From Candidatus Bathyarchaeia archaeon (GTDB lineage Archaea > Thermoproteota > Bathyarchaeia > Bathyarchaeales > Bathycorpusculaceae): a DNA stretch of 64,000 bases. Positions within the stretch are counted from its first letter, which is position 1, and every line of letters begins with the position of its first letter. Made by a program: the position numbers and the translations under genes. Location: positions 1-64,000 of the forward strand of contig JBEKSS010000009.1 in NCBI GenBank assembly GCA_049516875.1, given 5' to 3'. Positions 2,695-63,163 of this stretch are shown here, in pieces. Under the pieces are notes generated by a model, which made no database searches, had not been told where the DNA came from, and saw nothing but the letters and a program-made list of their open reading frames with translations.

Positions 2695-2852
2695 CCGGTC
2701 CCAGCCGATTGGCTATAAACTAGCCTCTTTCGCGTGTGCTATTGTTACAAGTTGATATGCGCGCTTCTTGCAGCTCTGTTCTAAGCTAAGAATTAAATAG
2801 CTAGTGAACTATACTGTAGATGGCAGGAGTAGAGACCTGTAGGATTTGAAAC

Positions 2853-3260
2853 ATGGTTTCCAAGAATGTTGAGATTGTTTTGAAGACTCTGAAGAGCAAT
2901 CCAAACCTCATGAAAGACCTGAATGACACCTTGCAGAAGATTTTTGACACGGCAAAGGTTGACTTATCGGACGAGGAGATGGCAGAGCTTTTCCGCACGA
3001 TGACTGAGTCTCTCATAATCGTTGACCCACAAAAAGGCATAATTATTATTGAAACCAAGCCCACGTCGCAAGAAAGCTATCAGAAAGACATGGAAAAAAG
3101 AAGAGAAGAAGGCACATTGGATTTTGAAATGTGGTTGAGACACGTTAAGAACTTAACGGGGCAGACAATCTTTCAAATGAATTTCAATCCTGACCTTATC
3201 AAAGAACGTGAATTGCAGGAAGAATACGCAAAGTGGAAAGGGATGAAGAGAAACGTATAG
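2853..3260 (+). CDS. Hypothetical protein; C-terminal ~60 aa homologous to 9200..9385
   Basis: Shared TLxFEMWLRHVKNxTGQ...RELQEEYAKWK block. Confidence 0.7.
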   Translation: MVSKNVEIVLKTLKSNPNLMKDLNDTLQKIFDTAKVDLSDEEMAELFRTMTESLIIVDPQKGIIIIETKPTSQESYQKDMEKRREEGTLDFEMWLRHVKNLTGQTIFQMNFNPDLIKERELQEEYAKWKGMKRNV

Positions 3261-3443
3261 AGAGCTAACCTCTTAGTCTGAACCCTAATCGGAATAAGAC
3301 ACCTCAGTTTTTCTACTTTCATAATCATGATATAGGCTGAAACGCGGTTTCATGTTCATGTAATCTACGCGGGCCTACCGACCCACCCTCTTTGCTAGCA
3401 CACATTAACCCATGAAAACACAAAAAGGCTGGCTTGGCTTAAC

Positions 3444-3695
3444 TCATGCAGGCCTCACTGCCTCAGGAGAGCTTCTTCCATGTGTTCCGACAAAGCGTTT
3501 TCTCTTGTTGTAAGCCAATGCAGCTAATACAATGCCGATAAGAATTAACGCTCCGCCGAAGAGCTGGCCCATCGGTTGGTTCTTGGTGTAGGACCATGTT
3601 GCCAACGCAACGCCAATAAGAAACAGCACTCCGCCAAAGAGTTCGCCTGCCGCTAGGCTATTCAAGCTTTTCCTCGCCTCCCGTCTTACGTTCAT
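3444..3695 (-). CDS. Small 2-TM membrane protein
   Basis: Two hydrophobic helices followed by a basic tail. Confidence 0.6.
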   Translation of the reverse strand: MNVRREARKSLNSLAAGELFGGVLFLIGVALATWSYTKNQPMGQLFGGALILIGIVLAALAYNKRKRFVGTHGRSSPEAVRPA

Positions 3696-3822
3696 AAACA
3701 GAAGAATAGCTTGCTGATAAGCTATTAACACCTTTTATGTCCAAAAAGCCTTGCTTTGCTGTTTTATGTGCGCCAAATAGAAAAGGTGAGGAGCAGTTCG
3801 CGCGTTTCTTCTGTCTGTGCTC

Positions 3823-4152
3823 TTACATGAACCCAATGTCGAGCAGTTTCAGGCCGGTGGCGATGCTGCCGTTGAATTCGAGTTTTCCGGTCATGAAGGC
3901 GTTGACAGCATTCAGTCTGCCGTTGACCAGGTCTACGAAGTCCGTGTCCATCATTTTGAGCGTGATGGCAGGCGAGGGGGCAACTCCCTCTTTTGTGTCG
4001 ATCTTCTGGTTTTTTATGGTTATGATCCAGTGGCCGCCGTTGGTGCCAGCGATGTCTACTTGGGCGACTGCTTCAAAATCTTTGGCCTTGTCGGGTTTGA
4101 ACTTGGTCGGCAGAACTTTTTCAAAGAATTCTTCAGGCGTTTTCACTTCCAT
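3823..4152 (-). CDS. SCP2 sterol/lipid-binding domain protein
   Basis: GGHWIITIKN, DFVDLVNGRLNAVNAFMTGKLEFNG typical of SCP2. Confidence 0.9.
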   Translation of the reverse strand: MEVKTPEEFFEKVLPTKFKPDKAKDFEAVAQVDIAGTNGGHWIITIKNQKIDTKEGVAPSPAITLKMMDTDFVDLVNGRLNAVNAFMTGKLEFNGSIATGLKLLDIGFM

Positions 4153-4255
4153 GTTCCTTTCACCTGCTAGGCTGGACAACTTTTACTTATGTGGAGCGCG
4201 GGGAGGTTAAATACGTTTGTAATGAGTCGTGTCACGTTGGAGCCTGTTTGGTCTT

Positions 4256-5014
4256 TTATATGAACAGGTCTTTTTCTCTTGGCCTGACGAGTTCTGCTGC
4301 TTTTGCGCCTTCGGCTTTTGGATAGTTGTATCCTCTGATTATGGCCGCTGGGATTCCTTCGTTTGCTTGTCCTATCGCGAGTTCTGCCGCGGAAGACAGT
4401 TCGTCGACGATTGCGGTTTGTTTTATTCGTAGGACGCGTCCGAAGAGGTCTTTTTCGCCTCTTCTGTCTCTTATGGGTTTCATTCCTGCAACGCCTATTG
4501 CCACGTTTATTTCGCCCATCCTCAATGGTCGTCCGTGAGTGTCGGAGACGATTACTGCTACTCTGCGTCCGGTGAGCTTTTTGATTTCTTGTCTGATCGT
4601 CTCTGCGGAACGGTCGGGGTCTTTCGGTAGCAGGGCCGCGTTCCGTTCTCCCTGCACGTTGGATCTGTCAACACCTGCGTTTGCGCAGACAAAGCCATGC
4701 TTGGTTTCTGTTATGAGGTTGCCATTGCCCATGCGCACGATACGTTTTGATTCTCGGAGGACAACTTCGACCAAGGCAGGATCCTTCTGGTACTCTTCGG
4801 CAATTTTCATGGCGAATTCGGATGGCTGAACCTTGTCAAGGTTCACGATGTTTCCTTCTGCACGTGAAACGACGACGTGGGTGACCACGAGTATATCCCC
4901 GTCCTGAATAGGGGTGCCCTGTTTTTTCGTTGCGTTGCAGACTAGTTCGCCCAACCGGTCTCCCTTCTTTATGATCGGCAAGCCTTCAACCGCGATTATC
5001 TGGATTGTGTTCAT
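4256..5014 (-). CDS. cofE: Coenzyme F420-0:L-glutamate ligase
   Basis: GLPIIKKGD, VVSRAEG, CANAGVDRSN, LPKDPDRSA, DTHGRPLR, DELSSAAEL motifs. Confidence 0.95.
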   Translation of the reverse strand: MNTIQIIAVEGLPIIKKGDRLGELVCNATKKQGTPIQDGDILVVTHVVVSRAEGNIVNLDKVQPSEFAMKIAEEYQKDPALVEVVLRESKRIVRMGNGNLITETKHGFVCANAGVDRSNVQGERNAALLPKDPDRSAETIRQEIKKLTGRRVAVIVSDTHGRPLRMGEINVAIGVAGMKPIRDRRGEKDLFGRVLRIKQTAIVDELSSAAELAIGQANEGIPAAIIRGYNYPKAEGAKAAELVRPREKDLFI

Positions 5015-8890: not shown

Positions 8891-9199
8891 ACACTGTTCC
8901 CCGTTTTTTGTTGTTAGACCGCGCGATGGAACTGACAAGATGCCTTCCGCACGATGTTTTCCATGATGTCACTTCCAAACCTACGCAGGTCAAGGGTCGC
9001 TACTTTCCTGTCCATAATGGCGCCCTTCGATGATCTCGCGCGCGTTACGCCTGCCCTGTAGTAGATGCCTCTTTTCTTGGTTAGGGGCAGATCTTTCAGC
9101 CAAGGAAACATAGGCTTCCTGAACAGAGTGCTAATATGACATTGCTAATATACTTCGTAGTTGAATATAACATGTTGAAGTGCGCAGGAGTCAGAAGGA

Positions 9200-9385
9200 A
9201 TGAGCTATGAGGAGGAAATGAAAAAAGGAATAAGAGAACGCACTTTGACTTTTGAAATGTGGCTGAGACACGTTAAGAACATGACTGGGCAACAAATCTT
9301 TGAAATGAAAAGCGAGATCAATCGAGACCCTGCTAGAAACCGTGAATTGCAGGAAGAATACGCAAAGTGGAAGGAGAAGAAATGA
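9200..9385 (+). CDS. Small hypothetical protein, paralog of the C-terminus of 2853..3260
   Basis: GGAG/GAAGG upstream of ATG; protein and DNA similarity to 3100-3240. Confidence 0.75.
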   Translation: MSYEEEMKKGIRERTLTFEMWLRHVKNMTGQQIFEMKSEINRDPARNRELQEEYAKWKEKK

Positions 9386-9454
9386 AGCATAGCGCGCGTA
9401 TATGTCGCGCTTTCAAACGTGCTTAAAACATCTTTCGTTGTTTCGCTAGTGTGA

Positions 9455-9825
9455 ATGAAAGGGGGGCTAAGTCTTACCTCTAATATGCAATCATATTGGA
9501 CTCCTTGTTCTGTCAAAGATGCCTTGGCCCAAAACGGTATTTTTGCAGCAGTCACATTTTGTTTGCGCGCGACGATTGATTATGATTCCGTTCCTGCCAG
9601 AATAGTCAACGTGACCCATGTCATTTCTAGTCATGGTTCAGATTTCGTGAATGTCGATTATAGTGGTTCTTTGACGAGCGGCGTGGCCCCAGCGGCCAAA
9701 GTGCGGGTTCTGTCCGAGTTTGCGATTCCGATAGAAGTTGTGTTCACCGTACTTTGGCTGATTGAACTGTTGAGAGCCATTAGAAGCGAGGGAGTTAGCG
9801 TTGTTCGTCTGCCTGCGATTCTGCT
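9455..9825 (+). pseudogene. Probable fragment of a membrane-anchored protein gene
   Basis: Open frame with beta-rich segment then a TM helix (IPIEVVFTVLWLIELL); GCGCGC motifs at 9564 and 9825. Confidence 0.3.
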
Positions 9826-9850
9826 AGCGCGCGCTTTTTTTGTTTTTGGG

Positions 9851-16613: not shown

Positions 16614-16769
16614 ATGTCTACTAGAGAATTGTTCCTTAGCCTATATCGGAAAAAAAAGTTGCCAAGCAAAGACTTCCTAGAACTCTACGACCTTATATGG
16701 GAAGGCACAGCTCCCATCAAGTACCAGAATCCTGAAAATTGGCGCGCGCACAGAGGAGACGAAAAATGA
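16614..16769 (+). CDS. Small hypothetical protein
   Basis: GGAG upstream; stop overlaps the next start (ATGA). Confidence 0.5.
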   Translation: MSTRELFLSLYRKKKLPSKDFLELYDLIWEGTAPIKYQNPENWRAHRGDEK

Positions 16770-17071: not shown

Positions 17072-17499
17072 AGTTTCTCCTGTCGCTCACAAACTACATC
17101 GTGGAAAAGGGCAAGTTCAACATAACATGTTTGAAAGTTGGAATAGCGCGCTACTTGAGGCGCAGATTTCTCTGATCGCTGATGCTGATCGCGTTCGACG
17201 CAAGAGAAAAGAGAAACGAAATCTATTTGATGTGGTCGGTGAGCCTCCATTCTTTTTACTGAAAACTGGGCTGGTCAATAGTTATACTGTTCTATGATTT
17301 CGCAGAGCGCTTGGCTAGATGTTCGCTTATGTCTAGAGGGGCGCGCGCTGGATTTGTCTGTGGTGCGTGGGGTGAGGTTTATGCTGTCGTTTGAAACTGT
17401 CAACTCTTCTATGGAGCAATATGCTTTTCAGTTGAGACCGAGTTCCCAACAAATAGTGCAATGTTTGTAAGGTGATGTATCGCAAGACTTAATTCAATT

Positions 17500-18198: not shown

Positions 18199-18432
18199 CA
18201 TCCAAACGTCGAACACCTTCTATTAGCCTACGCGCGCTTGCTAGAGCATGACATTGTCACTCTTGAGGTGACTATGCTCACGATAAGCTGGGTACTGCTG
18301 ATAGTTTCAGGCGCCTTGCTGAGCGTCGTCTTCAAGCGAGCGCGCGCGCTGTGGATGTTGTGCGTCAGCATATTGCCTTTCCACTTTGTTTCAAGAGGGA
18401 TCTCCTTGTCGACCATGGTGCGCGCTGCTTGC

Positions 18433-19630: not shown

Positions 19631-19647
19631 TGGTGCGGGGGGTGGGA
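19631..19647 (-). repeat. att-like duplication of the tRNA-Leu 3' end
   Basis: TGGTGCGGGGGGTGGGA identical to 27834-27850. Confidence 0.85.
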
Positions 19648-19766
19648 CCCCCGCCCGACTTTACCGGTAAAAACACCATCACTATGGCGGGTCTGAGGTG
19701 ATTTGTATAGATTTCTATCCGAGTACAACGATACCTTGAGCTGGAACTTGATAAATCAGTATGTAA

Positions 19767-21431: not shown

Positions 21432-21437
21432 CTCAGG

Positions 21438-24491: not shown

Positions 24492-24810
24492 TTTTTTTGA
24501 GAAAGCAACAAAATTAGAACCTATAGATTCCACCTGAGAACACCTTCCCCCAGTTTTCAAATAACCATCCAATTAGGAACAGCCAACAAGATGCTTATCT
24601 GTTTTTTGAAACAAAGTTCCATCACTGGACAGTAATTCGTGCCAAATAAAGGACAAATAGGAGAAAAGAGAAGGACACAAATACCTAAATGGCGAGAGTC
24701 TGATTAGCGCGCGCCAAAGGCTACGCCCGCGCTATTTGAAACATGATTTTGAACGTAAATACGTAAATACCGAAGGCCTGAAGGTTGTGTGCGAGTTGGG
24801 AGTGGAGGAT

Positions 24811-24984: not shown

Positions 24985-24996
24985 GGCGAAGGGCAA

Positions 24997-26371: not shown

Positions 26372-26974
26372 ATGAACATTGCTTTCCTCGGATGGGGATC
26401 ACTTGTATGGGATCCACGCAACCTGAGGACGGGTGGGACTTGGAGAAATGATGGTCCGGAATTGCCGATCGAATTTGCTCGAGTTTCGAAAGATGGAAGA
26501 CTTACACTTGTAATCTGTAGCGGAGCACGAAAAGTAAAGACATTGTGGACACCCGCTGATTGCAGCACTTTAGATGAAGCAGTTAGAAATCTTGCTTGCC
26601 GCGAAGACACTGTTAGCGAGAACATAGGATTCATCTCTGTTCCCGACAGAAGGAAAAAAGGCCGTCTGAAGGATTCGGTCCTCAGGATAGAAGCGTGGGC
26701 AAAGGAAAAGGGACTGGATGCGGTGGTATGGACAGACCTAAAACCGAAGTTCAAAGAAATATGCAAAACCGAGTTAACATCTGAAAACGCTATTGCGTAT
26801 TTAAGAAAGCTCGATGACAACTCTCGAAAAAAAGCTGAGATGTATGTCCGCAACACTCCTCAACAAATAAATACTAAAATAAGAGAATCCTTGGAAAAAG
26901 AACTTGGATGGACCTGCACCGACGATAATGCCAGAATCCAACGCTGGTCCGATATTAGGGAGCGCGCGCGCTGA
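26372..26974 (+). CDS. Hypothetical protein, possible gamma-glutamylcyclotransferase-like fold
   Basis: N-terminal IAFLGWGSLVW, GPELPIEFARVS.DGRLTLV, DAVVWTDL. Confidence 0.7.
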   Translation: MNIAFLGWGSLVWDPRNLRTGGTWRNDGPELPIEFARVSKDGRLTLVICSGARKVKTLWTPADCSTLDEAVRNLACREDTVSENIGFISVPDRRKKGRLKDSVLRIEAWAKEKGLDAVVWTDLKPKFKEICKTELTSENAIAYLRKLDDNSRKKAEMYVRNTPQQINTKIRESLEKELGWTCTDDNARIQRWSDIRERAR

Positions 26975-27548: not shown

Positions 27549-27833
27549 ACGCTCCTAATACTAGGGAAGAATCGTTCTGAACAATATGGATACGTCCAAC
27601 TTTGTCTGCGCATCAAAGGTCGGAAAAAAGAGAAAAAAGAGAAAGTCCTGTTCACTTGAAGCTAGACGCAAAGATCATCTGATAAATCCTGAAAAGTGCT
27701 TATTAGTGAGACAGCAAGATAGGCTTGCGCGCGCGGATTGCGATTTGAGAGCACTAGGATTCGTCACGACGAAGATAACACATATTTCGTGGCCTTCTCA
27801 CGAAAATAGCGTGAAAAAAGCTTTAGAAAGAGG

Positions 27834-28230: not shown

Positions 28231-29799
28231 ATGTCAGCTTCGCTTGTGATACTGAACGCCAACATAATCACACTAAACCCTAAACAGCCAAAAGCCACGG
28301 CAGTAGCCATTCACAACAGCCGAATAGTCGCCGTAGGCTCCAACGCCGAAATCCGCAAACACATAGCCAAAAGCACAAAGATCATGGACGCCAACAACAA
28401 GACCGTCGTCCCAGGCCTCGTCGACTGCCACGTCCACATGACAGAATTCGGCTTCTTCCTCCAAACCCCCGACCTGAGAAACACACGGTCCATAAAAGAA
28501 ATGCAACAGAAACTCCGGGAACAAGCCTCCAAAACTGGCGGAGAAGGCTGGATTCAGGGAGGAAGATGGGATCAAGAAAAATTCGGCGAAAAGCGGTATC
28601 CAACCCGCTGGGACCTGGACGCTGCGGTATCGGACAGACCTGTTTTCTTGGTCCGCGTCTGCGGCCACATCGGCGTCGCGAACACCGAAGCCCTCCGACT
28701 GGCGGGCATAACGAAGGAAACCGTCGTCGAGGGTGGAAAGATAGACTTGGATGAAGTCTCCGGCCAGCCGTGCGGAATCATAAGGGGGAACGCCATGCGT
28801 CTCATCTGGAAAGTCGTTCCCAAACCAAGTTCAGAAGTTCTGGAAGAAGTCTGCCTCCTGACGTGTAAGAAGGCAGTGGAAGCTGGACTCACCGGTGTTC
28901 ATTGGCTAGTAGAGACCACAGATGAGATTCGGGCAATAAAGAAGCTCGATTCCGAGGGAAAACTGCCTATAAGAGCCTATCTGGGCGTTCCATTGAAGCT
29001 CATAGACAGGCTTGCCAACCTCGGCCTTTCAACCGCAGCCATGGACAGCATGGTCAGAATGGGTTTTGTCAAGCTCTTCGCCGACGGCTCTCTCGGCTCC
29101 CGAACCGCAGCCTTGAAAGAACCATACTCCGACGAGCCTGAGTCAACTGGGCTACTGCTTCATTCGAAGAAGCTGTGCCAGCTTGTCCTAGAAGCCCACA
29201 AGACCGGGTTTCAAGTGGGCGTGCACGCCATAGGCGACCGCGGCATCGAAAACGTTCTAGACGCTTACGAAGAGGCCTTAAAGCGGTATCCAATGGAGGA
29301 TCACAGACACAGAATCGAACACTGCTCCGTCCTCAACCCCCAACTCATCAGACGCATGAAAAAGCTGCGCCTCATCGCCTCCGTCCAGCCACACTTCGTA
29401 GTATCTGATCCCTGGATCGTCGACCGCGTGGGCAGAAAACGCGCTCGCTGGGTCTACCCCTTCAAAACGCTCGTGAAGAAGGGCGTGGTCGTCGCTTCCG
29501 GCTCCGACTGCCCCATCGAGGACATCAGCCCCCTACTCGGCATCTGGGCAGCCGCAGCGAAAAGAAGTCCAGACGAAAGCCTCACCGTGAAGGAGGCTCT
29601 GAAGAGCTACACACTGAACGCGGCCTACGCCAGTTTCGACGAAGACAAAAAGGGAACGATTGAAGTCGGAAAGCTGGCGGATTTCACGGTTCTGTCGGAC
29701 GATTTGTTCAACATTGAACCAAACGTGATCAACAAAGTTGTCGTGGAGATGACCGTCGTTAACGGAAAGGTGGTTTATGCTCGTGAAGACTCTTTCTAG
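28231..29799 (+). CDS. Amidohydrolase family 3 (YtcJ-like)
   Basis: PGLVDCHVH, KLFADGSLGSRTA, HAIGD, RIEHC, GSDCP, GKLADF. Confidence 0.92.
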   Translation: MSASLVILNANIITLNPKQPKATAVAIHNSRIVAVGSNAEIRKHIAKSTKIMDANNKTVVPGLVDCHVHMTEFGFFLQTPDLRNTRSIKEMQQKLREQASKTGGEGWIQGGRWDQEKFGEKRYPTRWDLDAAVSDRPVFLVRVCGHIGVANTEALRLAGITKETVVEGGKIDLDEVSGQPCGIIRGNAMRLIWKVVPKPSSEVLEEVCLLTCKKAVEAGLTGVHWLVETTDEIRAIKKLDSEGKLPIRAYLGVPLKLIDRLANLGLSTAAMDSMVRMGFVKLFADGSLGSRTAALKEPYSDEPESTGLLLHSKKLCQLVLEAHKTGFQVGVHAIGDRGIENVLDAYEEALKRYPMEDHRHRIEHCSVLNPQLIRRMKKLRLIASVQPHFVVSDPWIVDRVGRKRARWVYPFKTLVKKGVVVASGSDCPIEDISPLLGIWAAAAKRSPDESLTVKEALKSYTLNAAYASFDEDKKGTIEVGKLADFTVLSDDLFNIEPNVINKVVVEMTVVNGKVVYAREDSF

Positions 29800-29825
29800 C
29801 GCGCGCCAAAAGAAGAAGCCTTTTT

Positions 29826-30647: not shown

Positions 30648-30881
30648 TTCGCGCGCAAAGCAACATGTCACACTTTCCTATTCTTTCAGCCCAGGCCAAA
30701 AGTTTTCCAAATTCTAAAATAGTTATAAAAGGGTTTTGTAGAACGATTTTTTATTAGGCGCGCTCAGTGCGCGCGCCCTCTAATGTGGCAAAAGCACTCT
30801 TAACTGATTTTTGAATAGCATGCGCTCTCGTTTGAAATTTTCCCAACGAAGGTTTGCAGTATTCTTGCGGTTCGGATACAC

Positions 30882-33293: not shown

Positions 33294-33432
33294 TCAAATC
33301 AGCCTTCACAAGTTCATCAAAACTTTCAGAAAGTCCACTTGCTCTCTTTCTCGTGTATGAATGAACATATCTCTTGTGCGTTGGGCTTTTCAGGTTCTTT
33401 GATAGTTCTTCTAGAAGAGTTTCTTCGCCCAT
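33283..33432 (-). CDS. 49-aa ORF coupled to the ATPase (not in the ORF track)
   Basis: MGEETLLEELSKNLKSPTHKRYVHSYTRKRASGLSESFDELVKADLSET*; overlaps the ATPase GTG start. Confidence 0.55.
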   Translation of the reverse strand: MGEETLLEELSKNLKSPTHKRYVHSYTRKRASGLSESFDELVKADLSET

Positions 33433-33438
33433 ATCTCA

Positions 33439-34225
33439 CTATATCCGCAATAATGTCTTATTACATTTTTCCATCCCGATGAATAACTTGCCGAGTTGCA
33501 CGGCGAAGGCGACGGATCCCATTCCTGCCCGCACGCTAAGTTGAACGAAAAGCTGTGTCAGCATAGTCTTCGTATTGTGTTTAACTATTCTCATGTATTC
33601 ATCGTACTGCCGGTTCTCTTTATTACCCAGATGCAGATCAATGGTCTTAGCATACAGTTTTACGGTAGTAGGTTTGTCTTCGATTAGGTTTCTTAGGAGG
33701 GTTAGAGGGGTCGAGATTAATGTGCTTTCTTCAGATTTGGGGTAGACAAGAAGAACGATTTGCAGTTTGGCAATGCTAAACTGTAGGCTATTATTTGATA
33801 GTAGTCGGCGTTTGATTTATCCCTCTTGTATTTGGCATCTATTATGAGTGGATATTCTTCGTTGACTGTCTTGACCACTATGTCAGGTATGATTCGTATT
33901 TTTCCTTCTTTTACAAGGGAATTGAAGCGAGATTGCTTTTCAATTTGATAGCCCTTAAAATCTGGGTCTTCGGTAACTATTTCTTGAATTATCTCCGTCA
34001 TGAAATCTTGGTATACCTTATTCATATTGACAATAAAATTAAACCCTCGTGATCGCCCCTTATGGACGCTACGGATGAATCTTTCCTCAAGAATTAATTT
34101 CGAAAGCTTGATTATTTCTTCATAATTTTGGTTGAGTCGATTAAACTTGACCCGATCATGTTGGTTCTCCATAATCAAATAGCGTATTGGCATCGAACTG
34201 TTTGCTTCCTGAGAAGTAAACAAAA
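33439..34225 (-). pseudogene. McrC-like PD-(D/E)XK nuclease, 5'-truncated and frameshifted
   Basis: FNRLNQNY, NMNKVYQDF, PDIVV..IIDAKYK..ADYYQIIAY; LLVYP continues in another frame near 33750; no McrB in the window. Confidence 0.8.
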
Positions 34226-34452
34226 AGTCCCTCAATTTCACTCATCAAAGGGGCATAGATTTTCTCCACATTCTCCAAGTTCCAGTCTCTTACATTGGTA
34301 AGAACTGCTAGGAGAAAAGACGGCAAGAATCCTGCAACGATGCCAATAGTTAGACCTTCGATGGTCTGATTCCATTCAGTTGAGGCCGCCAGTATTAATG
34401 ATATCACAAGGAGCGAGCCCCACAAACCGACAACTTTCCAAAGATAACCCAA
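34156..34452 (-). CDS. Small 2-TM protein or fragment abutting the McrC remnant
   Basis: GAGG upstream of TTG; two hydrophobic helices; 3' end runs into the McrC frame. Confidence 0.5.
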   Translation of the reverse strand: MGYLWKVVGLWGSLLVISLILAASTEWNQTIEGLTIGIVAGFLPSFLLAVLTNVRDWNLENVEKIYAPLMSEIEGLFVYFSGSKQFDANTLFDYGEPT

Positions 34453-34652
34453 ACACGACCCTCAATAAAGAGAGCTTTATTCTGGTTACTTTAAGTTTTA
34501 GTGCCAGAAGGTGTGTTGCTGGCCAAGGTGATTATAGATGAGTTGACTCAGAGCCAAGTGCTTCCTCCCGTTAGTTAGTCTTCGTCCCATTCCGGGTGCG
34601 TTGTCAATGTTAGGAAACGTTATAATTCAATCAAGCGGTAGGTAATCACAGG

Positions 34653-35747
34653 ATGTCAAGAACAAAACGTGTGCTTGCCAAGCTAATAGTAGTTGCGGTC
34701 GTAGGTCTTGCAATTTTTCTGCTTTCTTACTTTGCAGGTTTTGGACTGTTAATTTCCATCACGATAAGTTCGTTGTCATTTCCTTTTGTTCTTGCTGCGC
34801 TTTTCCCGAGCAAGGCCTTCAATTTCTTTGAAAGGCATCTCCAGGCCATATCTATAGCATTTATTATTGCGCTACCTGGTGTGTTGACAGTTCTCCTCGG
34901 GGGCTTTCTGGGAGTATTATTACTCTACTACGTTCCTATTCTATTCATATTAGCTGCGCCGCTCCTCGCCTTGATATTGACCGAAGTGGGCGTCATACTG
35001 ATCTACCGGGTGATGATTCACGAGGTCGTTAAGGAGGAAAGATGCCCAGTATTTATCCTTCGGACGCGAAAAATGCTCAATAGGATCGCAATTTGTATAT
35101 TTGCTGCGTTCCTCTCGCTTCCATTTCTAATCTATCTCCTTGGCTACCTTGGCGTGAAACAACCAATACTCCCTCTCTTGTACCTCTACGCTTTTGTCTT
35201 TTGGTCCTATTTCTTTCTCTTGCCGATCTCGTTAGGCATAGTCAACAATTATAAGCAGGTCAAACTGGGCCTGAGAGCCGCAATCGGGGGTTTTGAAAAA
35301 CTCACCCAGTATTCAACGCCTGTTGAGAAAAGCAAAACCCTGTCTGATTTGGTGTGGTTAATGGACAGTCTGCGTGTCTACAGCAAGCTTATGTCTTCTC
35401 AACCTAATCGTCCAGTCTTAACGAACGTAAAAGTATATTACGACGCAGCCGTCGTAGCGGTTCTGAGTGGCACGCGAAAAGACCAAAGAAGAACATTGGA
35501 AGCTCTGAAGGACATGCTTGAGGCATTAGGAAAGAAAAAAAGCGAAGTCAACTTCAAGGAATTTTTGTTCGCCCTTATTCGGATGACAAAAACTGAACGC
35601 GTGACATCGAACGATGTTGAAGCAGCGACGAAGACTGAATCCAGGACTGAATGGATAAAAGAGCGTTCCAAATCTATCGTAAAATACGTGGTCCCAGTCG
35701 TTAGCGTGGTTGTGCAGATTCTCGCCGCTTTATGGGCTAAAGGATGA
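34653..35747 (+). CDS. Multi-pass membrane protein
   Basis: About 6 N-terminal TM helices, soluble domain, C-terminal TM. Confidence 0.8.
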   Translation: MSRTKRVLAKLIVVAVVGLAIFLLSYFAGFGLLISITISSLSFPFVLAALFPSKAFNFFERHLQAISIAFIIALPGVLTVLLGGFLGVLLLYYVPILFILAAPLLALILTEVGVILIYRVMIHEVVKEERCPVFILRTRKMLNRIAICIFAAFLSLPFLIYLLGYLGVKQPILPLLYLYAFVFWSYFFLLPISLGIVNNYKQVKLGLRAAIGGFEKLTQYSTPVEKSKTLSDLVWLMDSLRVYSKLMSSQPNRPVLTNVKVYYDAAVVAVLSGTRKDQRRTLEALKDMLEALGKKKSEVNFKEFLFALIRMTKTERVTSNDVEAATKTESRTEWIKERSKSIVKYVVPVVSVVVQILAALWAKG

Positions 35748-35874
35748 GTGCAATCCCCTTGCAAGCTATGAGGAGCGCTTTTCGCAGAAAGGACAAGGTT
35801 ATGGTTCAATTTGCGAACGAAGTGAGTGCGCGCGTTGCAAAGTAACTTTGTCACATACCGTCTTGCAACGAGAA

Positions 35875-37691
35875 CTATGGTCTTTGGTTCGAATCATGGT
35901 CGGGATACTTAGGCACAGTCAGCTTTTGTTTCACACACTTAGGAATTTCGAGTTCTTTTATTAATAGCCACGGAACTCTTACCTGCCGCTGTTTGATATT
36001 GATGTCTAAGATGCCAGAGTCCTGACCGGAGTTTTCTATTCTGAAATCTTGGCTTGAAACCATTTCTTTTAGTTCAAGGAACGAGATTAATGTGGTTCCC
36101 ATGAGCTCTTCGAATTGTATTGCGATATTCGTGACGAGAAATGGAAGGATGAAAACTGGTTTTGTTTTGTCAACCCCAAGTGCAGTGCCTAAGTCCTTTC
36201 CGACATAACTTTCGAATCTGCTTGGATTGTTCTTTATCCACATTGCTCTGTAAAAATGCTCAAGACAGAATCGTCTAAAATGTTTGAGTTTGTGGCGGTC
36301 GAGTGCTTTGTCTTTTATCTCTTTACACTCAATGACGAGCAAGCAGTTGTTTTTGCTTGATATTACGTCTATATCTGTTTTTTTCTTCTGTTCTCCCCAT
36401 AGACCATGAGCAACTTCAAGCGGGATTGTTGGTTCGTTAATCTCAACTCTGTTTGGAATCGTGTGCAGTCCTTGCTCTATCATAACACGCCTACATGCTT
36501 GCTCAAAGGCATCACCTTTGAAATCATTATTCAGTAATTCTCCAAAACATTCTTCTAGTAAAATCCGTCTCGAACCAGTAAGCCTTCTGAAACTCGTGAA
36601 TATGTAGTCATCGACTGCAATGAAACCGAGAAATGAACTTTTGAACTTTCCTTTGAGGAGCTGAATTGTTTTTGTAATATTAGCGAGGCCAAAGCAACCA
36701 AGTTCCCTCTCTCTAATGAGTTCGGAGTATTTCCAAATTCCTATCGTATGGATGTTTTGTAGCACAGATATGTAATTTCCGAGGTTATTTCAAAAAAAAT
36801 CTGAAAGTCAATTCCGAAGGATTGCTTGAATGTGTAAGAATAATTCTTGATGGAACTGTAAGACTTGTAGATCTCTTTGTCTTCTCTTCTCAAGATCTCC
36901 AAATTTTCTTTACCCTTACCCATATCGACTATTTTGAAATTCTCGGCTGCAGTTTCTCTGAAAAATGAGTTCCAATCAAAGACTGTTGCACTATTCTCTA
37001 TTATCCTTGGCGTAATACCTTCTCTTTCAAGTATCGATTCCACGGCACTCCCATCAGGCAGAGTGATCTTTCTCAAACCAGTTGTATCATCAAATTCAAC
37101 TGTAGTTCCCTCAGGTGCCCCACGGAGCATTGTTTCCAAGAGGCCCTGTTTGTAACAAAGATCTCTTAGTTCGAGAATTGCTTTCATTCTCTTTTCAACA
37201 GACTTGTGTTCGCCTCCTTTGATGACGATGAAAAACCATCCTGGAATTCGATTTAAGAAATAGCGGGGTTTTTTAATCACCCAATCTTTTTCACCGATTT
37301 CTCCTTCCTTACCTAGGCCTATTAGGTAATCATCGACATTTTGTTGGAGGGTGATTCCGAACATAAATTGGGGAAGTTGACGAATTTTCAGTGGTACGAA
37401 GGAATCGTTTTTGATAACAGTGTTAAGAATAGTGTTTACTACGTTGTACCATTCGGCCATGAACTGAAACATTGAAAGAACAAAATCTTCATGTTCCTCT
37501 TTTTCTAAACCATTCGTCAGGTTGAACTTGAGGAACTTTATCTCCAAATTGTTAATTGCATCTTCGAGGCAGAGCAATAGCAGTATTGTGTCAATATGAT
37601 TGTTTTTTGAATACTCCGCTTTGAGTTGGTTATTGACTTTTTCTAGCTGTCTACCTGCCTCAGCCTTGTTCGATGCCTTAAAATTGCTCAA
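35875..37691 (-). CDS. Large protein with C-terminal PD-(D/E)XK (NERD-like) nuclease domain, split by a frameshift near 36757
   Basis: GDAFEQ, TDIDVI..LLVIECKE; ORFs 36741..37691 and 35875..36765 join at TAC AAA(A) CATC. Confidence 0.75.
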
Positions 37692-38364
37692 CTTGACTTC
37701 TCTCTTTGAGCTTAATGTGAAGGTCAGTCATGCTAAAAGCTTCTGGTGAATCGCAATTAGCGTGCGACAATGCTGAAACACCTTAAGTTCCAGAATTCAT
37801 TATCCTAATCAATTCTTCAGCGCGCTGCCTTAGGCGTCTTGCTTTCGTCAGCAATATCCGTTTGTTGCTCCAGACAGAACAAGCACAAAAGAAGCACCAT
37901 ACAGTCACGACACCAAACACTAGAGTAGCGCGCGTGCTGTGAGAATAAAATACTTTTGGTTCACGTTGCAAAAACTTGGCGTTAACGCGCGTTAACGCAT
38001 TCTCGCGAATAGTTCATTGTGCTAACGCGAAAAGGAGCTTAATTCGCAAAGAACTGGTCACAAAAACAGAGTGTCACAAAAACTCAAAAAAGCATGTTGC
38101 GTCAATTGTCTTTTTGTGAATTCCTAGAAAAAATGAATTGTTACGAATTGTTACAGCAAAATTGTTACAAAAGCATGGACTTTCACGTTAATCCTCGTTT
38201 AGCGCGCTCGAACTTCGATGATGGATGTGTCCTTCGGGTTCTCGCTGTCATGGCCAACATGCGCATGATTGGATTAGGGATAGAATTGGGTCAGATTCTG
38301 AGAAACGGTTTAATATTCCATTCTTCTTGGGAAGAGACTGCAACCATGGAAAGGAGGATTGTAA

Positions 38365-40446: not shown

Positions 40447-40515
40447 ATTCCCTCTGAGTTTTTATTCATAAGAGAATCGCTATTTAAACATGATAAGCGC
40501 GCTACAAGAGACGCT

Positions 40516-40783: not shown

Positions 40784-40985
40784 CCTGTGTCCCTCACAGC
40801 CTTGGTCAACCCTTTCACAGTTTTCAACCCATCTACTTTCATTAATGTTTCGCCCTGCAAAGATTCGCCCCACTCCCCACCAACGCGCGCTACGCCTTTC
40901 CCTTGCAAACGCCGTCCATTATCCATTCTGATTTGACACTAATTACTCTGACTAAACAAGCTTCTTATAACGCGAGGCGTCAGAC

Positions 40986-41342: not shown

Positions 41343-41471
41343 CACGAATCTTTGAATGTTGGAAGACAACACTGGAGTTTCTGCCAAGACCGGTCAGTTG
41401 CACACAAACTATCCTGTTCATAGATAGCGCGCGCTAAGAGTATTAAGTGGCCATGCAGTTATCCGTAGCTT

Positions 41472-42020: not shown

Positions 42021-42414
42021 GCGCCCGCACGATTGGTTTGGGTTTGAGGCCAAGTTTCCTCCCGGTTTCTCAAGTTGTCTTTGTCAACATCCTTCAAAAT
42101 CCATTCTCCTCTACAGTCACAAGCGAGACTTAGCCTATTTCAATCTTTGGGAATGGTTCAGGAGGAGGGGGTGAAACTCATCCAGACCAGAAAATTGTCT
42201 ATTGTCAGGGCGCGCGCTGTAACGATTCTCCATGCTTTCCCGGCTCTCAACAGAAGCATGCCAGAAGAACATGACTTCGTTCTGCATTACTGATTTCTGC
42301 TAAGGATTGCAGGTTCATAAACGCTTTATCAAAAAAAATCAGCATTAACACGCAGGCTCCCACGTTCGATACTGGAGCTGAATTTGGAACAGCAACAACC
42401 AGGAGCATATTCGC

Positions 42415-53547: not shown

Positions 53548-54251
53548 ATGAAAAGCGAAGCTGAACCTATCAATTGTCCTTTTTGCGGTGCTCCTTACAC
53601 AGACGTTATCGCAGCCGATGTTGTTCAGGTGAAATGCAAGTATTGTGGAGGAATGTTTCAGGTTCCCCAAACCATCGGAGCCGAGCTTTCCAGATGTCTC
53701 AACCATCCTGAGAAAGTTGCTGTTGGAATATGCAATAACTGTGGGCAAAGCTTCTGCGGGAGCTGTCTTCATGCCCATCGCCTTGCAACGCGCGATACGA
53801 GTGCTACCTTGTATTCGTGTCCAGACTGTCTCAAAGCCATGCACGACAAGAAGGTTCAAGGGTACATCTACGCTGGAGCTCTCACGTTGCTCATGGGCGC
53901 GCTCTTTACAATTGTCGTGCCCGTGCCCGGAGTGATACTCTTGGTGTTTGGGCTCGTTTCGATATTCTACGGTTTCTCAGGCAAGTCGGGAGCAATTGAA
54001 GGGAAGACGATTGACGAGTTGAAGGCTGAGCAGGAGAAAAGGAAGGCTGAGGCTGCTGAGTACGATGGGGTTGACTTTGAGGCGATGTATGACGAGCTCG
54101 TGACCAGATACGTGAAGCATTGGGAGCATCGGAAGGGCTTCAGGTTCTTGATGAAGAAATCAATGCCTATGTGAGACATGGGCAGAGTTTTCCCGAGGCC
54201 GTTATAGCAGTCTACCGAAGGCAGGAAAAAAGTCGGCGCGCGCCTGCCTAA
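53548..54251 (+). CDS. Zinc-finger (zinc ribbon plus B-box-like) membrane protein, frameshifted near 54123
   Basis: CPFCG..CKYCG, CLNHPE..CNNCG..FCGSC..CPDC, 2 TM; continues ..GASEGLQVLDEEINAY.. in another frame to TAA 54251. Confidence 0.7.
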
Positions 54252-55192: not shown

Positions 55193-55413
55193 CAGATGAC
55201 TCGTAGAATCTCTCGCGATGCTGTGGGGGCGTTGCGCGCGCTAATCATCTTTCCTTCTTAACATTCACTGATTAGAGTATACATTAAAGAATCCATAACA
55301 CAAGAGGACGATGGAGAGGACGCGACGAGACTTTTTCGGGTTTGCAAGACTTAAATAGCGTTACGTAGTCCATGTTTGACTGAGTATGTGTGACTGGTTG
55401 ACTCTGGTGCGGA

Positions 55414-56601: not shown

Positions 56602-59600
56602 TTGAGAAGCAAGCCCCTCCAACGCATAGTTGTTAGTCTAGTTTTGATAGTCGTTATGATGCTGGCATCCACCGCGGCGTGGACGTCAGTGAGCCCTGAT
56701 GATAGTGCTATCGGATTAGCGCGCGCGATCGAACAGCGACTGCCCAGAATATTCTATCTACAGAATTTTGAGAACGAAACGGCGGGCAATCCTGCTGACA
56801 ATTGGACAGTGTTCCCACCTGGCGCAGGAAGTGTCATCGTCAACGGTAGCACCATTGATGGGGATATGGGCAATTATGCGAAGTTCGTTGACAACTCAAC
56901 CATAGACTCGGTGGTTGCTTCGCGCAGCTTCACCCAGCAGAATGGCACGATTATGTTCAGTTTCTCTGTTAGCCTCCCATACACTACGGGCGTCCACACT
57001 GGCCTTGAAGTAAGCGTTGATGATGGAGGCTTCAACGGTTCGAACATCGTCTTCAAGGACGGGGCAATATGGTACTATGACGGAAACAAAGGGCTCGTTG
57101 CTCTGAGATCTTACTACGTTGCCAACCGATGGTACAGAATCAAATTCATTATGAACATACCTGCCAACGTCTACAACATCCACATCGACGATCACCTAGA
57201 ATGGACAGGCGCAGAGTTTAATGGATCTTGCAGCCAGATTCATAGAATAGCTGTCACCGAGTTCTCTCCCTCCGACGCCCCAGGTTCACTGTTGCCAATA
57301 GGGTTCATTGACGACGTAGAAGGAAGGCAAGGCATCATTATTCCGGTTGATTTTCCAACGATCCAGGCGGGAGTAGACGCGGCCAGTCCAGGAGACCTTG
57401 TGTACGTTACGTCTCAGAGAATCTACTTCGAAAGCGTCTACATACCAATGGAGAAGAGCGGCATATGGCTTGTCGGGCAAGATGCCAGCACGACGATTAT
57501 CAATGGAAGGTTTGCAGAGACGAATCCCTACAGGATAGCGTTGGATGGCTGTTCAGATGTCGTCGTGTGCGGCTTCACGATGAATTGCTCGAATGAAAAC
57601 GGCACACAAGTCATCCTGTGGTACAGCTCGGGCAACGTCATCACTCATAACATAATAATCAACGGTCTTGGCGACGGAATATATATTCGTGGTTCGAACT
57701 CGGACATAACTGACAACGTGATTCAGTCAAACCAGGTTGGCATCAGCCTGGATTCGGGCAAAGACAACTTGGTGATGAACAACACGATAATGGGAAACAT
57801 GGTGGGTCTCCAGTGCGGAGAAGAAGCTGTCAACAATCTGATTTACGCGAATCGATTTGTTGCCAACAATCAGCAGGCGCTCGATTACGGGACATCAAAC
57901 GCGTGGGATGATGGTTACCCGTACACGTCCACGCCGGATAGCATTGCGGGAGGAGGAAACTATTGGAGTGACTTCAGTAACTGTACCGACGTGTATTCGG
58001 GCAAGTATCAGGATGAGGAGGCCAACTGTTGCTGGCCTTCGCCAGATGGCATATGTGATCAACCGTACAATATAAACGTCAACAGCGTTGACCATTACCC
58101 GCTGTTCCTGATACAAAATGTAACCCAGGTCCCGAAACTTAACCGCGCCAATTGTGCCCTTGGGGTGTTCGACAAAAGCGTCCAATACACAGATAACGTT
58201 ATCGTGACGGCAACAACACTCAGGTTCGTCAATATTTCCAAAGCAACCGTTTACGTGGACTATACCTACGCGGGTGTGACCACTCACCGGAGCATCTCAA
58301 TGACAGTGTCTGGTAACATTTTGACTGGTACGATACCGCACCAGCCCTATAATACAACGGTCAGATACAACGTCAGTGTGGTTGCGTCCGGGGTCGACTG
58401 GAGGGGTTCAAGTAGCAACTTGAGCCTGAACTCAACCAACTACCCGATTCCATTTCCCTATCTCGTGGACGACATGACGCCACCTGATTTCCCCAAGATT
58501 CCGCCTTTCACAATAACGGGAGGTGATGAGAATCAAACGTATACTGTAACAACAACGGTGACAGAACCATCGGACGCGAGCGGTGTAGACAAGGTTTACG
58601 CGTCTTACCAGGTCAACTTCACTTGGTGGACGGCTGAAATGACGAAGGATGGCGACGACACGTACACGGCGGTGATTCCCCGGCAGTGGGGAGGTACTAC
58701 GTTGAATATCAAGGTGACCGCTGTCGATAAGGCGGGCATCCCAGGTGCGCCTACACCTAGTAACAGTTCCACGTATGTGAAGAGACTTGCTCAACTCAAA
58801 GTGAACTCCACTGACCCTATCCCTTACGACCCTTGTGATGTCGATCTCGGCTTACTGTCGGGGGATCAGACGTACACGGGTGGCTTCAACATCACTAACA
58901 TTGTCCAGCCGAATGATGACGTGCTCCTTTGGAACATAGTAACAGTTGAAGGAGGATCTTGGTTGCGCCCTCTTTCTATCACGCACGGCACCTTGACTGG
59001 TGGTCAAACTATTCACGTGGTCGTGACTGTTGACACCACCAACTGCTCAGATCCGGGTCTTTATGTTGCCAAGCTCTCTGTAAATGCAAACGGGACGGTG
59101 CCTCAGTGGGCTGTGATCTTGACCTTTACGGTGAGAGACATAATAATCGACATCTCATGGGCATCTTCTGAATGGCCGAACCGAGTCAACGTCGACTCAA
59201 CCCAATATGTAGCTTTTCACGCAGAGTGGGCCATCAACTGTGTAGACGCCACAGACGGCGCCTTGAAGATTTTTGGGAACGACACTTATGAACCAGTAAA
59301 CACTACGGGCTGGGCCACGTTCTCTGTGAGCTCTTCATCGCCAGCAAATATAACTTTCGGAGTTGAGAAGGTTGTATTTGGCAACGTAACGTCGTTTTGG
59401 CAAACGGCGCTAAATCGGACCATAGCGTGGGATCGTGTACAGGTTGTTCTCACAATGGACAACAACTATGTGAACGTTGACTCCCCCGCCGACATATCAT
59501 GGGGCGGCAGCTATTATGAGCTTGACCAAACTCCGTTCAACGCGAGCACGGGCTATGTCTTCTTCAACGACAGTTTAACCCGTGACCACGTTGACGAAGC

Positions 59601-61718: not shown

Positions 61719-61806
61719 ACTGTTCACCTCCGATTTGATGACTTGCGCACGCTTCCTAATCCTATGTTTGGAACCATCTTGAGTGAAATCCTCAGCGACC
61801 GATGTT

Positions 61807-62058
61807 TCAACTGCAACCACATCCATTCTCTGAATCTTCCGCAACAGGTTTCGCCTCTCCGATTAGACCTGACGCAAACTCGTCCATGTGTGCCATTGCA
61901 CCTTTTCTAACCATCTTTGCTATCGCAATTGCCTCCATGATTTCTTTTTCCTCTGCTCCACTATCTTTCGCCCCCTTCATGAGGTGTTCAGGACAGGGCT
62001 GACAATTTGCCGTTACCGAAGCTCCGACCGCTATCAACAATTTGGTTCGGTTTTCCAT
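61807..62058 (-). CDS. Carboxymuconolactone decarboxylase/AhpD-like protein
   Basis: LIAVGASVTANCQPC..H...A...G....EI.EAI.IA; C-terminal CGC. Confidence 0.8.
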   Translation of the reverse strand: MENRTKLLIAVGASVTANCQPCPEHLMKGAKDSGAEEKEIMEAIAIAKMVRKGAMAHMDEFASGLIGEAKPVAEDSENGCGCS

Positions 62059-62085
62059 AGCAGACCTCCTCAATATTCTTGTCAA

Positions 62086-62325
62086 CTACTTGATGACCAG
62101 CTTGAGTGCGGGGCTGAGTACTTTGCTCACTGCTTCTCCCAGTCCTTCTGCTTTGAGCATCAGAAGACAGCACACTTCGCCTCCTTTTTCACAGGCCACG
62201 ATGGCGAGCTTGTCGCCGGGCTTCAATTTTGCTTTCTCCCTTATGTCCTTAGGAAGGACTATCTGCCCTTTCGAATCAATTGCAACGACGGCGTCTACCC
62301 TGAAACCTTCATTACGACCGTTCAT
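62086..62325 (-). CDS. AbrB-fold HgcAB-associated-like protein (HgcC-like)
   Basis: VDAVVAIDSKGQIVLPKDIREKA.LKPGDKLAIV......VCCL.MLKA. Confidence 0.75.
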   Translation of the reverse strand: MNGRNEGFRVDAVVAIDSKGQIVLPKDIREKAKLKPGDKLAIVACEKGGEVCCLLMLKAEGLGEAVSKVLSPALKLVIK

Positions 62326-62487
62326 TACTCTCACTGCCCAAAGCTGTGTTTCTCGGATTATTTATGTTTTTCGGATTTTTCAGAAAAATACGATTAGGCG
62401 AAGAAAGCCCTCCAGCACCGTGCCTCCCACGCTTCGTTCCCGCCCTTGAGGAAGCCTTTTCATCCTGCAGATTGTTCGCGGTTTGGG

Positions 62488-62883
62488 CTAGTCGGCTTCG
62501 TTGATGAGTCTCTTGACTCTCTTCTCTATTTCGTCCCTCATCTCCATCACCCTCTCGATGGACTTTCCTTTTGGATCATCGATTCCCCAGTCTACCACTC
62601 TGTTCAGCAGTGGAGCGGGGCAGAATCCTTGGGCGCTGCATCCCATAACGATTATCGTTTCTGCTTCCTGAACCATCTGGTTAGTGATAAGTTTCGGCTT
62701 GTTGGCTAACAGGTCTATTCCCTTTTCTCGCATGACCTGAACGACCATGGGGTTAACTTCGTTCGCTGGCATCGTCCCCGCGCTTGAAGCCTCAATCTTG
62801 CCATCACCATACAACCTTGCGAAGGCTTCTGCCATCTGGCTTCTTCCAGCGTTCTCAACGCAGACGAAAAGGATTCTTTTCAT
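62488..62883 (-). CDS. arsC: Arsenate reductase (LMW-PTP type)
   Basis: ILFVCVENAGRSQMAEAF, SAGT, MGC...CP, WGIDDPKG. Confidence 0.9.
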   Translation of the reverse strand: MKRILFVCVENAGRSQMAEAFARLYGDGKIEASSAGTMPANEVNPMVVQVMREKGIDLLANKPKLITNQMVQEAETIIVMGCSAQGFCPAPLLNRVVDWGIDDPKGKSIERVMEMRDEIEKRVKRLINEAD

Positions 62884-63163
62884 TCTTTCTTCACGTCCGT
62901 TGGAATGATGAAACAACGGGTTTAAAGTGTGTCAGCGCGCGCTACGAGTGTCTGGCAAGCAGGGCCCTTATCTGCTCTTCAGTGCTTTTTTTCACCAGAC
63001 TCGCCACAATATTAGTGAGATGGTCACTAAATAAACGCTTTTTCCTCATTAAAAGCGCGCGTAAGTCTTATTCGTGCAGCCCCATTTTTCTTGTTTGCTG
63101 CAAGAACGCCAAACAGTCAAATAGTCAGAATCCAGTTCTATGCAATGGGACTGTGAGGGAAGA

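Follow-up and report, generated by a model that had tools for sequence, protein, structure and literature searches.

Introduction

Excision of Tc1/mariner elements and of Stowaway MITEs (miniature transposable elements with inverted repeats) leaves footprints which consist of the duplicated TA together with a few nucleotides from each terminus. For Tn10, Foster et al. are said to have described in 1981 a 'nearly precise excision', a transposase-independent deletion between short repeats at the inverted-repeat ends. The palindrome HIP1 (GCGATCGC) reportedly fills coding regions and accompanies cognate methylases, as Elhai is said to have described in 2015, and integrons were reportedly found in archaea in a paper from 2022. 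For a Stowaway element in yeast, footprints of 6, 9 or 12 bp are given in the accessible part of the published study (PMC2836001). Here we analyzed a stretch of 64 kb at the beginning of contig JBEKSS010000009.1 of a Candidatus Bathyarchaeia archaeon, called the window in the following, in which the octamer GCGCGCGC (the motif) recurs. It had been proposed (the original prediction) that this palindrome marks a dedicated and so far undescribed cassette or boundary system, a proposal that does not fit the constant density per kb, the unconserved positions and the neutral drift of the motif described below.

The motif resembles several of these systems in part. The flanked 12-mer TA-GCGC-GCGC-TA has the same form as the footprints of Tc1/mariner and Stowaway elements, and like these it occurs as a 10-bp insertion polymorphism, is neutral and is tolerated outside genes only. 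Unlike them, the putative scars are several-fold more numerous than the elements, represent the commonest 8-mer of a prokaryotic genome and lie mostly at the junctions of larger indels, and the transposase is of the IS4/IS5 type (DDE_Tnp_1). With HIP1 the motif shares that it is a GC-rich palindromic octamer, the top word of the genome and patchy and lineage-specific in its distribution, but 81% of its copies are intergenic, its number in genes is close to the expected one, and a methylase to go with it was not found. As with the attC sites of integrons, short palindromic marks border single accessory genes or small groups of them and empty as well as filled alleles exist, but imperfect palindromes of 55–140 bp, a conserved core longer than 10 bp, arrays and an integrase beside the cassettes are all missing. 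In contrast to DNA uptake sequences and uptake signal sequences (DUS/USS), the motif is not spread through genes or the core genome, and the imperfect palindrome of 20–40 nt with a conserved head, known from repetitive extragenic palindromes and their associated transposases (REP/RAYT), is missing. The predicted likeness to HIP1, attC, a terminator or a methylase site was not confirmed, as the motif is poor in coding DNA, has no flanking signal and has no fitting methylase.

The source of the palindrome appears to be an IS5-like insertion sequence (IS) and its MITEs, and we propose with moderate confidence that the solo palindromes, which have no element attached, are breakage-and-rejoining scars of these elements. 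We observed an enrichment of the motif, its restriction to intergenic DNA, its neutral drift, its association with junctions, its identity with the element tips, its co-distribution with the elements and two loci at which a tip and a solo run are allelic.

Abundance, unit and drift of the palindrome

The window represents the first 64 kb of contig C9 of its genome (G000), which comprises 2,430,117 bp in 20 contigs and is rated 97% complete and 5.4% contaminated. Genes were called with our own crude codon-usage caller (2,327 genes, 80.7% coding). We define a run as a maximal alternating G/C stretch and a solo run as a run without an attached element. The window contains 17 overlapping matches to the motif at 15 loci, compared to 0.78 expected from 100 dinucleotide-preserving shuffles (standard deviation 0.80, largest 3), in agreement with the 15 exact copies against about one expected that had been counted before. 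The 12-mer TAGCGCGCGCTA matches 14 times with at most two mismatches (1.26 expected), and from the 46 runs of at least 6 nt 36 are intergenic while 10 lie inside an open reading frame (ORF). Three of the 15 motif loci (16742, 26962 and 56719) are located inside called ORFs.

For the whole genome a count against a Markov model, split into coding and intergenic DNA, had been suggested, and it revealed a clear enrichment: GCGCGCGC is the commonest 8-mer of G000 with 894 copies on both strands against 61 expected from an order-3 model, the runner-up having 542. On one strand these are 447 overlapping copies in 388 maximal runs, 362 of the 447 (81%) being intergenic, whereas other GC-rich palindromes are 75–90% coding. 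Two further palindromic 8-mers are over-represented under the order-3 model, GAGTACTC (130 vs 42) and GATCGATC (92 vs 27).

At 212 isolated copies an A precedes the motif 152 times and a T follows it 136 times, with T at position -2 in 86 and A at position +2 in 92 cases, and the sequence logo of these sites shows no conserved bases beyond 2 nt on either side. Since conservation ends there, the motif's unit is AGCGCGCGCT, a 10-mer that does not belong to a longer repeat, and a longer repeat or MITE surrounding each site is ruled out by the same logo. The number of runs drops steeply from length 2 to 7, rises at 8 (240 runs), still amounts to 56 at 10 and collapses afterwards (5, 1, 1, 1), and exact 8-nt runs start with G in 212 and with C in 28 cases. 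Slippage of a microsatellite alone is ruled out by this bump at 8, the cliff after 10, the bias for G as first base and the flanks favouring A and T. Counts of TA(GC)nTA for n = 2 to 6 are 13, 9, 23, 4 and 0, and the corresponding C-first controls gave 13, 0 and 0; TAGCGCGCGCTA itself has 23 exact copies compared to none of its C-first control.

The density of the motif is 0.6–0.86 per kb in every class of spacers between 50 and 1,200 bp; it amounts to 0.35 per kb for spacers of 1,200–2,000 bp (27 in number) and to 0.11 per kb for those below 50 bp. As it is constant per intergenic base, the motif is not one mark per gene. Among the contigs of G000 it varies from 0.12 to 1.49 per intergenic kb. 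Contigs C5 and C6 show 0.12 and 0.26, compared to 0.44–1.49 on the other contigs above 30 kb, and possibly represent core regions or do not belong to the bin.

In order to follow individual sites we compared genomes of the same genus, which comprises G000–G004 among the 41 related genomes included here. For G002 and G004, which are about 95% identical, the aligned blocks contain 19 sites, 11 of which are conserved, compared to 59% of neighbouring 8-mers, and because these values are equal the sites are neither protected nor unstable once they are made. They differ by point changes, a slip between (GC)5 and (GC)4, patches of 4–5 clustered changes and one clean 10-bp indel. Between G000 and G004 (85% identical in genes) none of the eight sites in aligned blocks is shared, while 27% of control intergenic 8-mers are identical, and of the 41 syntenic gaps one has a site in both genomes and 13 have a site in a single genome only. 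Core syntenic spacers are poorer in the motif than variable DNA, which bears out the notion that it is densest in accessory DNA.

IS5-like elements and MITEs with the palindrome at their tips

One of the inserted segments starts with a repeat of about 185 bp that is dispersed over the genome and represents a MITE family. Its inverted repeats read GCGCGCATGYGTGTTCCTAAAWTGG..., thus starting with GCGCGC, and mostly have TA just outside. In G000 we found 46 matches to the inverted repeat and 54 tips, with 19 paired elements of 173–1,102 bp. TA stands outside 31 of 39 element tips and on both sides of 9 of the 19 paired elements, and the empty sites are compatible with a TA duplication or with insertion into TA. 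About six tips face clean empty sites in another genome, showing insertion polymorphism.

An autonomous copy with the same repeats is present in G002 (C7:99619-100700, 1082 bp) and carries an intact ORF of 328 aa (L176:694-1680), which matches PF01609 (DDE_Tnp_1, 1.2e-23) and PF05598 (DUF772, 1.3e-9); a second copy is frameshifted. Against NCBIfam, whose nearest families are IS1182 and IS5, the protein reaches 142 bits for IS1182 (cut-off 270) and 103 for IS5_4 (cut-off 140). The 328-aa DDE_Tnp_1 protein with DUF772, the element length of about 1.1 kb, the inverted repeats of at least 25 nt, the short TA flanks and derivatives of 150–480 bp in tens of copies all resemble IS5/IS1182, from which it differs in that it stays below the NCBIfam cut-offs for all named families. 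Homologues of at least 69% identity occur in G002, G004, G013, G020, where the gene is broken, and G021, where many lie at contig ends. The sole DDE_Tnp_1 gene of G000 (C7:36835-37809) is 45% identical, and its repeats likewise begin with GCGCGC. To our knowledge, a palindromic GCGCGC tip common to two transposase lineages of 45% identity is not a described feature. Judged by their sequence, the putative source elements are otherwise ordinary members of the IS4/IS5 world.

The elements and the motif occur in the same genomes. The 10-mer is found 98, 29, 87, 69 and 115 times in the five genomes of the genus and is also frequent (63) in G021 from another genus, whereas the remaining genomes contain 5–11 (five genomes) or 0–2 copies (30 genomes). 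The repeat matches 46, 8, 38, 3 and 57 times in the genus, 28 times in G021, five times in G024, once in each of three genomes and not at all in 31. Thus, all six genomes with at least 29 motifs have repeats, and 31 of the 35 with at most 11 motifs have none; over the 41 genomes repeat and 10-mer counts correlate with a Spearman coefficient of 0.66 and a p-value of 2.7e-6, which is overstated because kin are not independent. Within G000, windows of 20 kb hold on average 5.6 solo runs if they contain a tip and 2.6 if they do not. A search for a recombinase whose presence tracks the motif had been suggested as well; the IS5-like IS/MITE family does track it. At the accessory segment of the window described below no recombinase was found. 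No remnant of the inverted repeats was detected in the window itself with up to three mismatches, and the nearest MITE is located at C9:64723-64936.

An IS630/Tc1-type partner, suggested by the TA flanks, was rejected, since PF13358 was matched only on a small high-GC contig of G004 and in the motif-poor G014. The former (L171, G004:C58, 1,927 bp) has ends that repeat each other, so that it is circular or a tandem, and carries a high-GC IS630-type transposase without the GCGCGC repeat that is unlike the rest of G004; it is probably a contaminant or a plasmid-like element.

The palindrome at junctions between close relatives

The original prediction had tied the motif to the breakpoints of gene gain and loss, and this connection was found at two levels. 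For the genomes G002 and G004 (1.51 Mb vs 1.17 Mb, 447 kb aligned at 94.5% identity) we collected 69 indel or replacement events and searched for runs within 5 nt of their 276 junction ends, using the mean of eight shifted positions as control. Runs of at least 5 nt were found at 78 of the 276 ends and in 44 of the 69 events (shifted mean 4.4; Fisher odds ratio (OR) 24.5, p 6.9e-52), runs of at least 6 nt at 57 ends and in 36 events (shifted mean 2.4; OR 30.0, p 1.0e-40) and runs of at least 8 nt at 40 ends and in 30 events (shifted mean 0.9; OR 53.3, p 1.5e-32). The ends of the blocks aligned between G000 and G004, at 85% identity, show no enrichment (5/88 and 4/88, compared to 4.3% of random intergenic positions), and the association is visible only between close genomes.

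Among the events are 26 clean indels, in 11 of which a run is present at the junction of the empty allele. The filled allele has a run at one end at least in eight and at both ends in two, and according to the event list neither allele has a run in 11. With G000 as outgroup three changes could be polarised: two derived deletions of 2,546 bp and 314 bp, the latter in frame in a repeat protein, and one derived insertion of 1,024 bp that ends in GCGCGCGC. In both deletions the new junction has CGCGC or CGCGCGC, while the ancestral allele has no run at either end. The 314-bp change (G002:C4:140453 vs G004:C1:94034-94348) replaces part of a repeat-domain gene by an 8-nt stretch with CGCGCGC and is a rare instance of the motif surviving within a gene.

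In the window, comparison with metagenome contigs of 88–95% identity (L-numbers) revealed seven structural differences, four of which have the motif at the junction. The clearest of these four is an accessory segment of 7.5 kb (30657..38201), bounded by CGCGCGC (30650..30656), where the homology to the contigs L080, L077, L090, L060 and L061 stops, and by GCGCGC (38202..38207). It encodes an SMC/AAA ATPase (803 aa), a McrBC-like protein (174 aa) and three proteins without Pfam match and is defence-like in its content. The segment is absent from all five contigs; in four of them the empty site is a single CGCGCGC between the same flanks, and L061 has the degenerate CGCGGGC. A second segment of 929 bp (8917-9846), which is specific for the window and replaced by 131 unrelated bp in L090, is motif-bounded at both ends, with CGCGCG at its left edge (8920..8925) and the solo (GC)4 run ctaGCGCGCGCttt at its right edge (9827..9834), 16 nt past the end of the gene 9851-11647 on the minus strand. 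The GCGCGC at 40497..40502 marks the exact point where L090, L060 and L061 have about 590 bp more, and CGCGCGC at 40884..40890 lies near the start of a 1.2-kb stretch for which L090, itself with a run at this point, has unrelated DNA.

Formation of the putative scars

According to the reading that we favour, the palindrome would be the remnant of the outermost nucleotides of an element and not a host signal. Elements that start and end with GCGCGC, usually between two TA dinucleotides, would be lost or rearranged, often together with neighbouring DNA, and the broken ends would be rejoined in such a way that about 4 nt of each tip are kept. The expected product is (T)A-GCGC joined to GCGC-T(A), together with variants of 6 and 10 nt, and TAGCGCGCGCTA can indeed be written as TA + GCGC + GCGC + TA, which equals the flanking TA plus the terminal 4 nt of both element ends. 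Since such a scar would add 10 bp, it would be tolerated between genes only, accumulate there evenly per base, which would yield the constant intergenic density, and from then on change by neutral drift, and its birth in breakage-and-rejoining events would explain its position at junctions. Once abundant, the identical GC-rich scars may later act as microhomology for further illegitimate joins. From the sequence comparisons we consider both the descent of the solo runs from the elements and this kind of joining somewhat probable.

Loci at which a tip and a solo run are allelic would link both directly. At C10:117472-117951 in G000 a 480-bp MITE follows the end of a gene that in G002 (C1:5324) precedes GCGCGCG, the far flank of this locus aligning weakly. 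At G002:C6:103273 a segment of 4.7 kb begins with an element tip right after ...TTGA, and the allele on G004:C3 has the same two flanks around GCGCGCGC plus 3 nt. At a third locus a tip in one genome is opposed to the degenerate GCGCACGC. The inner A or T is kept by solo 8-nt runs (142/199 and 130/199) just as frequently as by tips, and the many runs with TA on one side would fit a one-sided rejoining. Deeper fusions of the tips were ruled out, as GCGCGCATGCGCGC is absent from five genomes. 'Nearly precise excision' as in Tn10 is similar in that GCGCGC at the two termini is repeated both directly and in inverted orientation at the foot of a hairpin, where slippage would delete the element and leave (GC)3–5, but it predicts mainly (GC)3, whereas TA-flanked (GC)4 is the commonest form here (23 vs 9).

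Several observations, besides the dependence among kin in the correlation given above, count against this reading. The two clean and one degenerate pairs of tip and solo alleles are few, given about nine informative tips and about six clean empty sites, and a recognisable tip was found at the edge of only 4 of the 69 variable segments between G002 and G004. For both derived deletions the model needs an intermediate element, and none was seen. TA stands beside solo 8-nt runs on the left in 69/199 and on the right in 64/199 cases, compared to 31/39 tips; thus solo runs keep the outer T or A half as often as tips, a drop that one would not expect if TA-flanked elements were simply lost. Apart from TA/TA, flanks forming direct repeats are not enriched at solo runs (5 with 18.3 expected). 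With respect to the source, G003 has 69 motifs but 3 repeat matches, and the assemblies of G000, G001 and G003 contain no close autonomous copy. In addition, the eukaryotic relatives of IS5 (PIF/Harbinger, mPing) excised precisely in 109 of 110 events in the accessible part of the study (PMC2836001). A scar origin does not explain the joining chemistry or the flank statistics.

If the scar reading is true, a single 10-bp word would record hundreds of past events in which the DNA of an uncultured archaeal lineage was broken and rejoined in connection with transposons. It would mark about half of the points of gain, loss or replacement between close relatives and could serve as a marker for the junctions of accessory genes. 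It would also be evidence for cut-and-paste transposition plus end joining in archaea, with Ku present in three of the six motif-rich genomes, and it would mean that debris of transposons, instead of a host signal, can lie behind a 'highly iterated palindrome'. In the literature accessible to us we found no published description of a genome-wide build-up of such scars in prokaryotes, either as the top word of a genome or as a marker of half of the indel junctions, and the available text of a 2024 review on prokaryotic MITEs does not use the word 'footprint' (PMC10969869).

Alternative explanations

The main rival, which is unlikely in our view and not mutually exclusive with a scar origin, holds in line with the original prediction that the motif is an active recombination site and that segments are inserted, deleted and swapped at existing copies. 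As agent one could think of the IS5-like transposase, which would act on abutted sequences that resemble tips, of a different recombinase, or of joining through microhomology among the numerous identical GC-rich copies. Such a site would account for the junction enrichment between G002 and G004, for the motif at both ends of a segment with one copy at the empty site (30657-38201, 8917-9846 and the G002/G004 event 63) and for three G002/G004 events in which the motif is kept on one side of unrelated segments. It does not account for the two polarised deletions whose ancestral ends lack the motif, and runs at both ends of the filled allele are seen in 2 of the 26 clean indels only. Ten matches to tyrosine recombinases (PF00589) in G000, four of them on the motif-richest contig C14, speak for such a site; none of them lies on C9, however, and no recombinase was found in or beside the 7.5-kb segment of the window. 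A site of 10 bp without conserved flanks is furthermore short for a site-specific recombinase, and the density per kb is independent of the spacer length. A related idea, which we regard as decidedly unlikely, sees the solo A(GC)4T units not as passive remains but as joints at work in a cassette exchange driven by the transposase. IS5-like tips that abut each other would then be cut again or used as privileged microhomology, so that any DNA, defence genes for instance, could be captured, swapped or deleted there although it is no bounded transposon, and an integron-like function would have arisen from the ends of insertion sequences and shape about half of the structural variation in the genus.

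It is quite improbable that the motif is a word similar to HIP1 or to uptake sequences, either propagated by a drive linked to a methylase, to repair or to uptake, or retained because an abundant DNA-binding protein binds it, in which case the likeness to the tips would be secondary and the elements adapted to the host word. Being the commonest 8-mer, a palindrome and patchy and lineage-specific, the motif would agree with this, as would the clustered substitutions that separate some sites from the orthologous sequence. The interiors of 1,208 confident genes (1.26 Mb) contain 18 copies compared to 7.6 ± 2.9 in synonymous shuffles, a 2.4-fold excess that points in the same direction; against this, only 18 of the 725 amino-acid contexts able to encode the motif are used, and its density in genes is 54-fold lower. 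Sites are also no better conserved than neighbouring 8-mers, and their density per kb is constant instead of one site per gene. A methylase that tracks the motif, for which a search had been suggested, was not identified. The C5 methylase family PF00145 has no match in the 97% complete G000, while PF01555 gave seven: L003 and L004 are THUMP RNA methylases, L001 and L007 are one and the same gene for a 304-aa N4/N6 DNA methylase, and the others include L006 (642 aa, with a borderline PF01555/UPF0020 match) and L002 (which carries stop codons). The N4/N6 DNA methylase was not found in the motif-rich G001 and G002, and G004 gave no more than a weak partial match; the motif-poor G006 and G029 do have it. 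This distribution and the missing PF00145 match argue against a methylase- or HIP-type drive.

Very improbable is filler DNA from an end-joining polymerase (repair of the Ku/LigD type), which would be added at any double-strand break without a link to transposons. It would explain the runs at the junctions of derived deletions whose ancestral ends have none as well as the clean 10-bp insertion, and Ku is indeed encoded in the motif-rich G000, G002 and G004. The other three of the six Ku-encoding genomes among the 41 (G010, G020 and G040) are motif-poor, however, and Ku was not found in the motif-rich G003 (93% complete) and G021 (98% complete), so that Ku was rejected as determinant of the motif. 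It would be a coincidence that the motif equals the tips, that TA flanks it and that it is distributed together with the inverted repeats. The Ku homologue of G000 is located outside the window (C9:92481-93017, PF02735 1.7e-40).

A transcription terminator, a Z-DNA element or another boundary signal at the DNA or RNA level is exceedingly improbable, since, even if the motif is intergenic, avoids the 40 nt before start codons and is densest between convergent genes (0.88 per kb, with 0.60–0.88 over all spacers including tandem ones), its density is still 0.60 per kb in divergent spacers, which are without 3' ends, neither a T-tract nor a compositional asymmetry was found around the sites, which together with the similar density in divergent spacers rules out a terminator, the positions are not conserved, and 8–10 bp are short for Z-DNA.

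Further copies in the window and neighbouring segments

Apart from the copies at junctions, solo (GC)4 runs are found at 16742..16749, within a doubtful ORF of 63 aa, and in intergenic DNA at 17341..17348, 42210..42217, 54236..54243, 55234..55241 (gttGCGCGCGCtaa) and, within the 7.5-kb segment, at 30769..30776. Two more are located in divergent intergenic regions (24707..24714, ttaGCGCGCGCcaa, and 62935..62942, tcaGCGCGCGCtac), and the run at 29799..29806, called intergenic, is overlapped by the TAG stop codon of the gene 28231-29799, which gives the TA flank. Solo (GC)5 runs, each with two overlapping 8-mers, are present between convergent genes at 18340..18349 (8-mers at 18340 and 18342) and at 26962..26971 (26962 and 26964), where the run covers the last codons of the 200-aa ORF 26372-26974. 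Runs of 9 nt were found at 27727..27735 (intergenic) and at 56719..56727, at about codon 40 of the TTG-started ORF 56602-60273, whose start is probably called too far upstream. The perfect 12-mer TAGCGCGCGCTA that had been noticed at 41425..41436 is indeed there, 37 nt upstream of the gene 41472-42020, and contains the 8-mer at 41427; the variants listed before at 9390, 13433, 16267, 18229, 40496 and 55233 were all recovered as well.

Another of the seven structural differences, a segment of 8.2 kb (19648-27832), is absent from L080 and has no motif at its junctions. It has att repeats on its two sides (19632-19647 and 27833-27850), which form a direct repeat of 18 bp (GGTGCGGGGGGTGGGA...) corresponding to the 3' end of a tRNA-like gene, and looks like an integrated element. 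It encodes surface-type proteins with beta-helix/PKD and CarboxypepD_reg domains and a Schlafen AlbA_2 protein, and no integrase was seen. The tRNA-like gene (27834-27950, minus strand) received no ARAGORN call and a weak Rfam match to the tmRNA clan (18.8 bits, E 1.8e-5), its first 60 nt match many places in the relatives with 90–97% identity, and it may be an intron-bearing archaeal tRNA. Between 9000 and 29000 the window is heavily reshuffled compared to G001–G004, as adjacent window genes fall on different contigs of the congeners, and the gene 11743-12714 is located in three relatives between genes that in G000 are found at 382 kb of contig C1.

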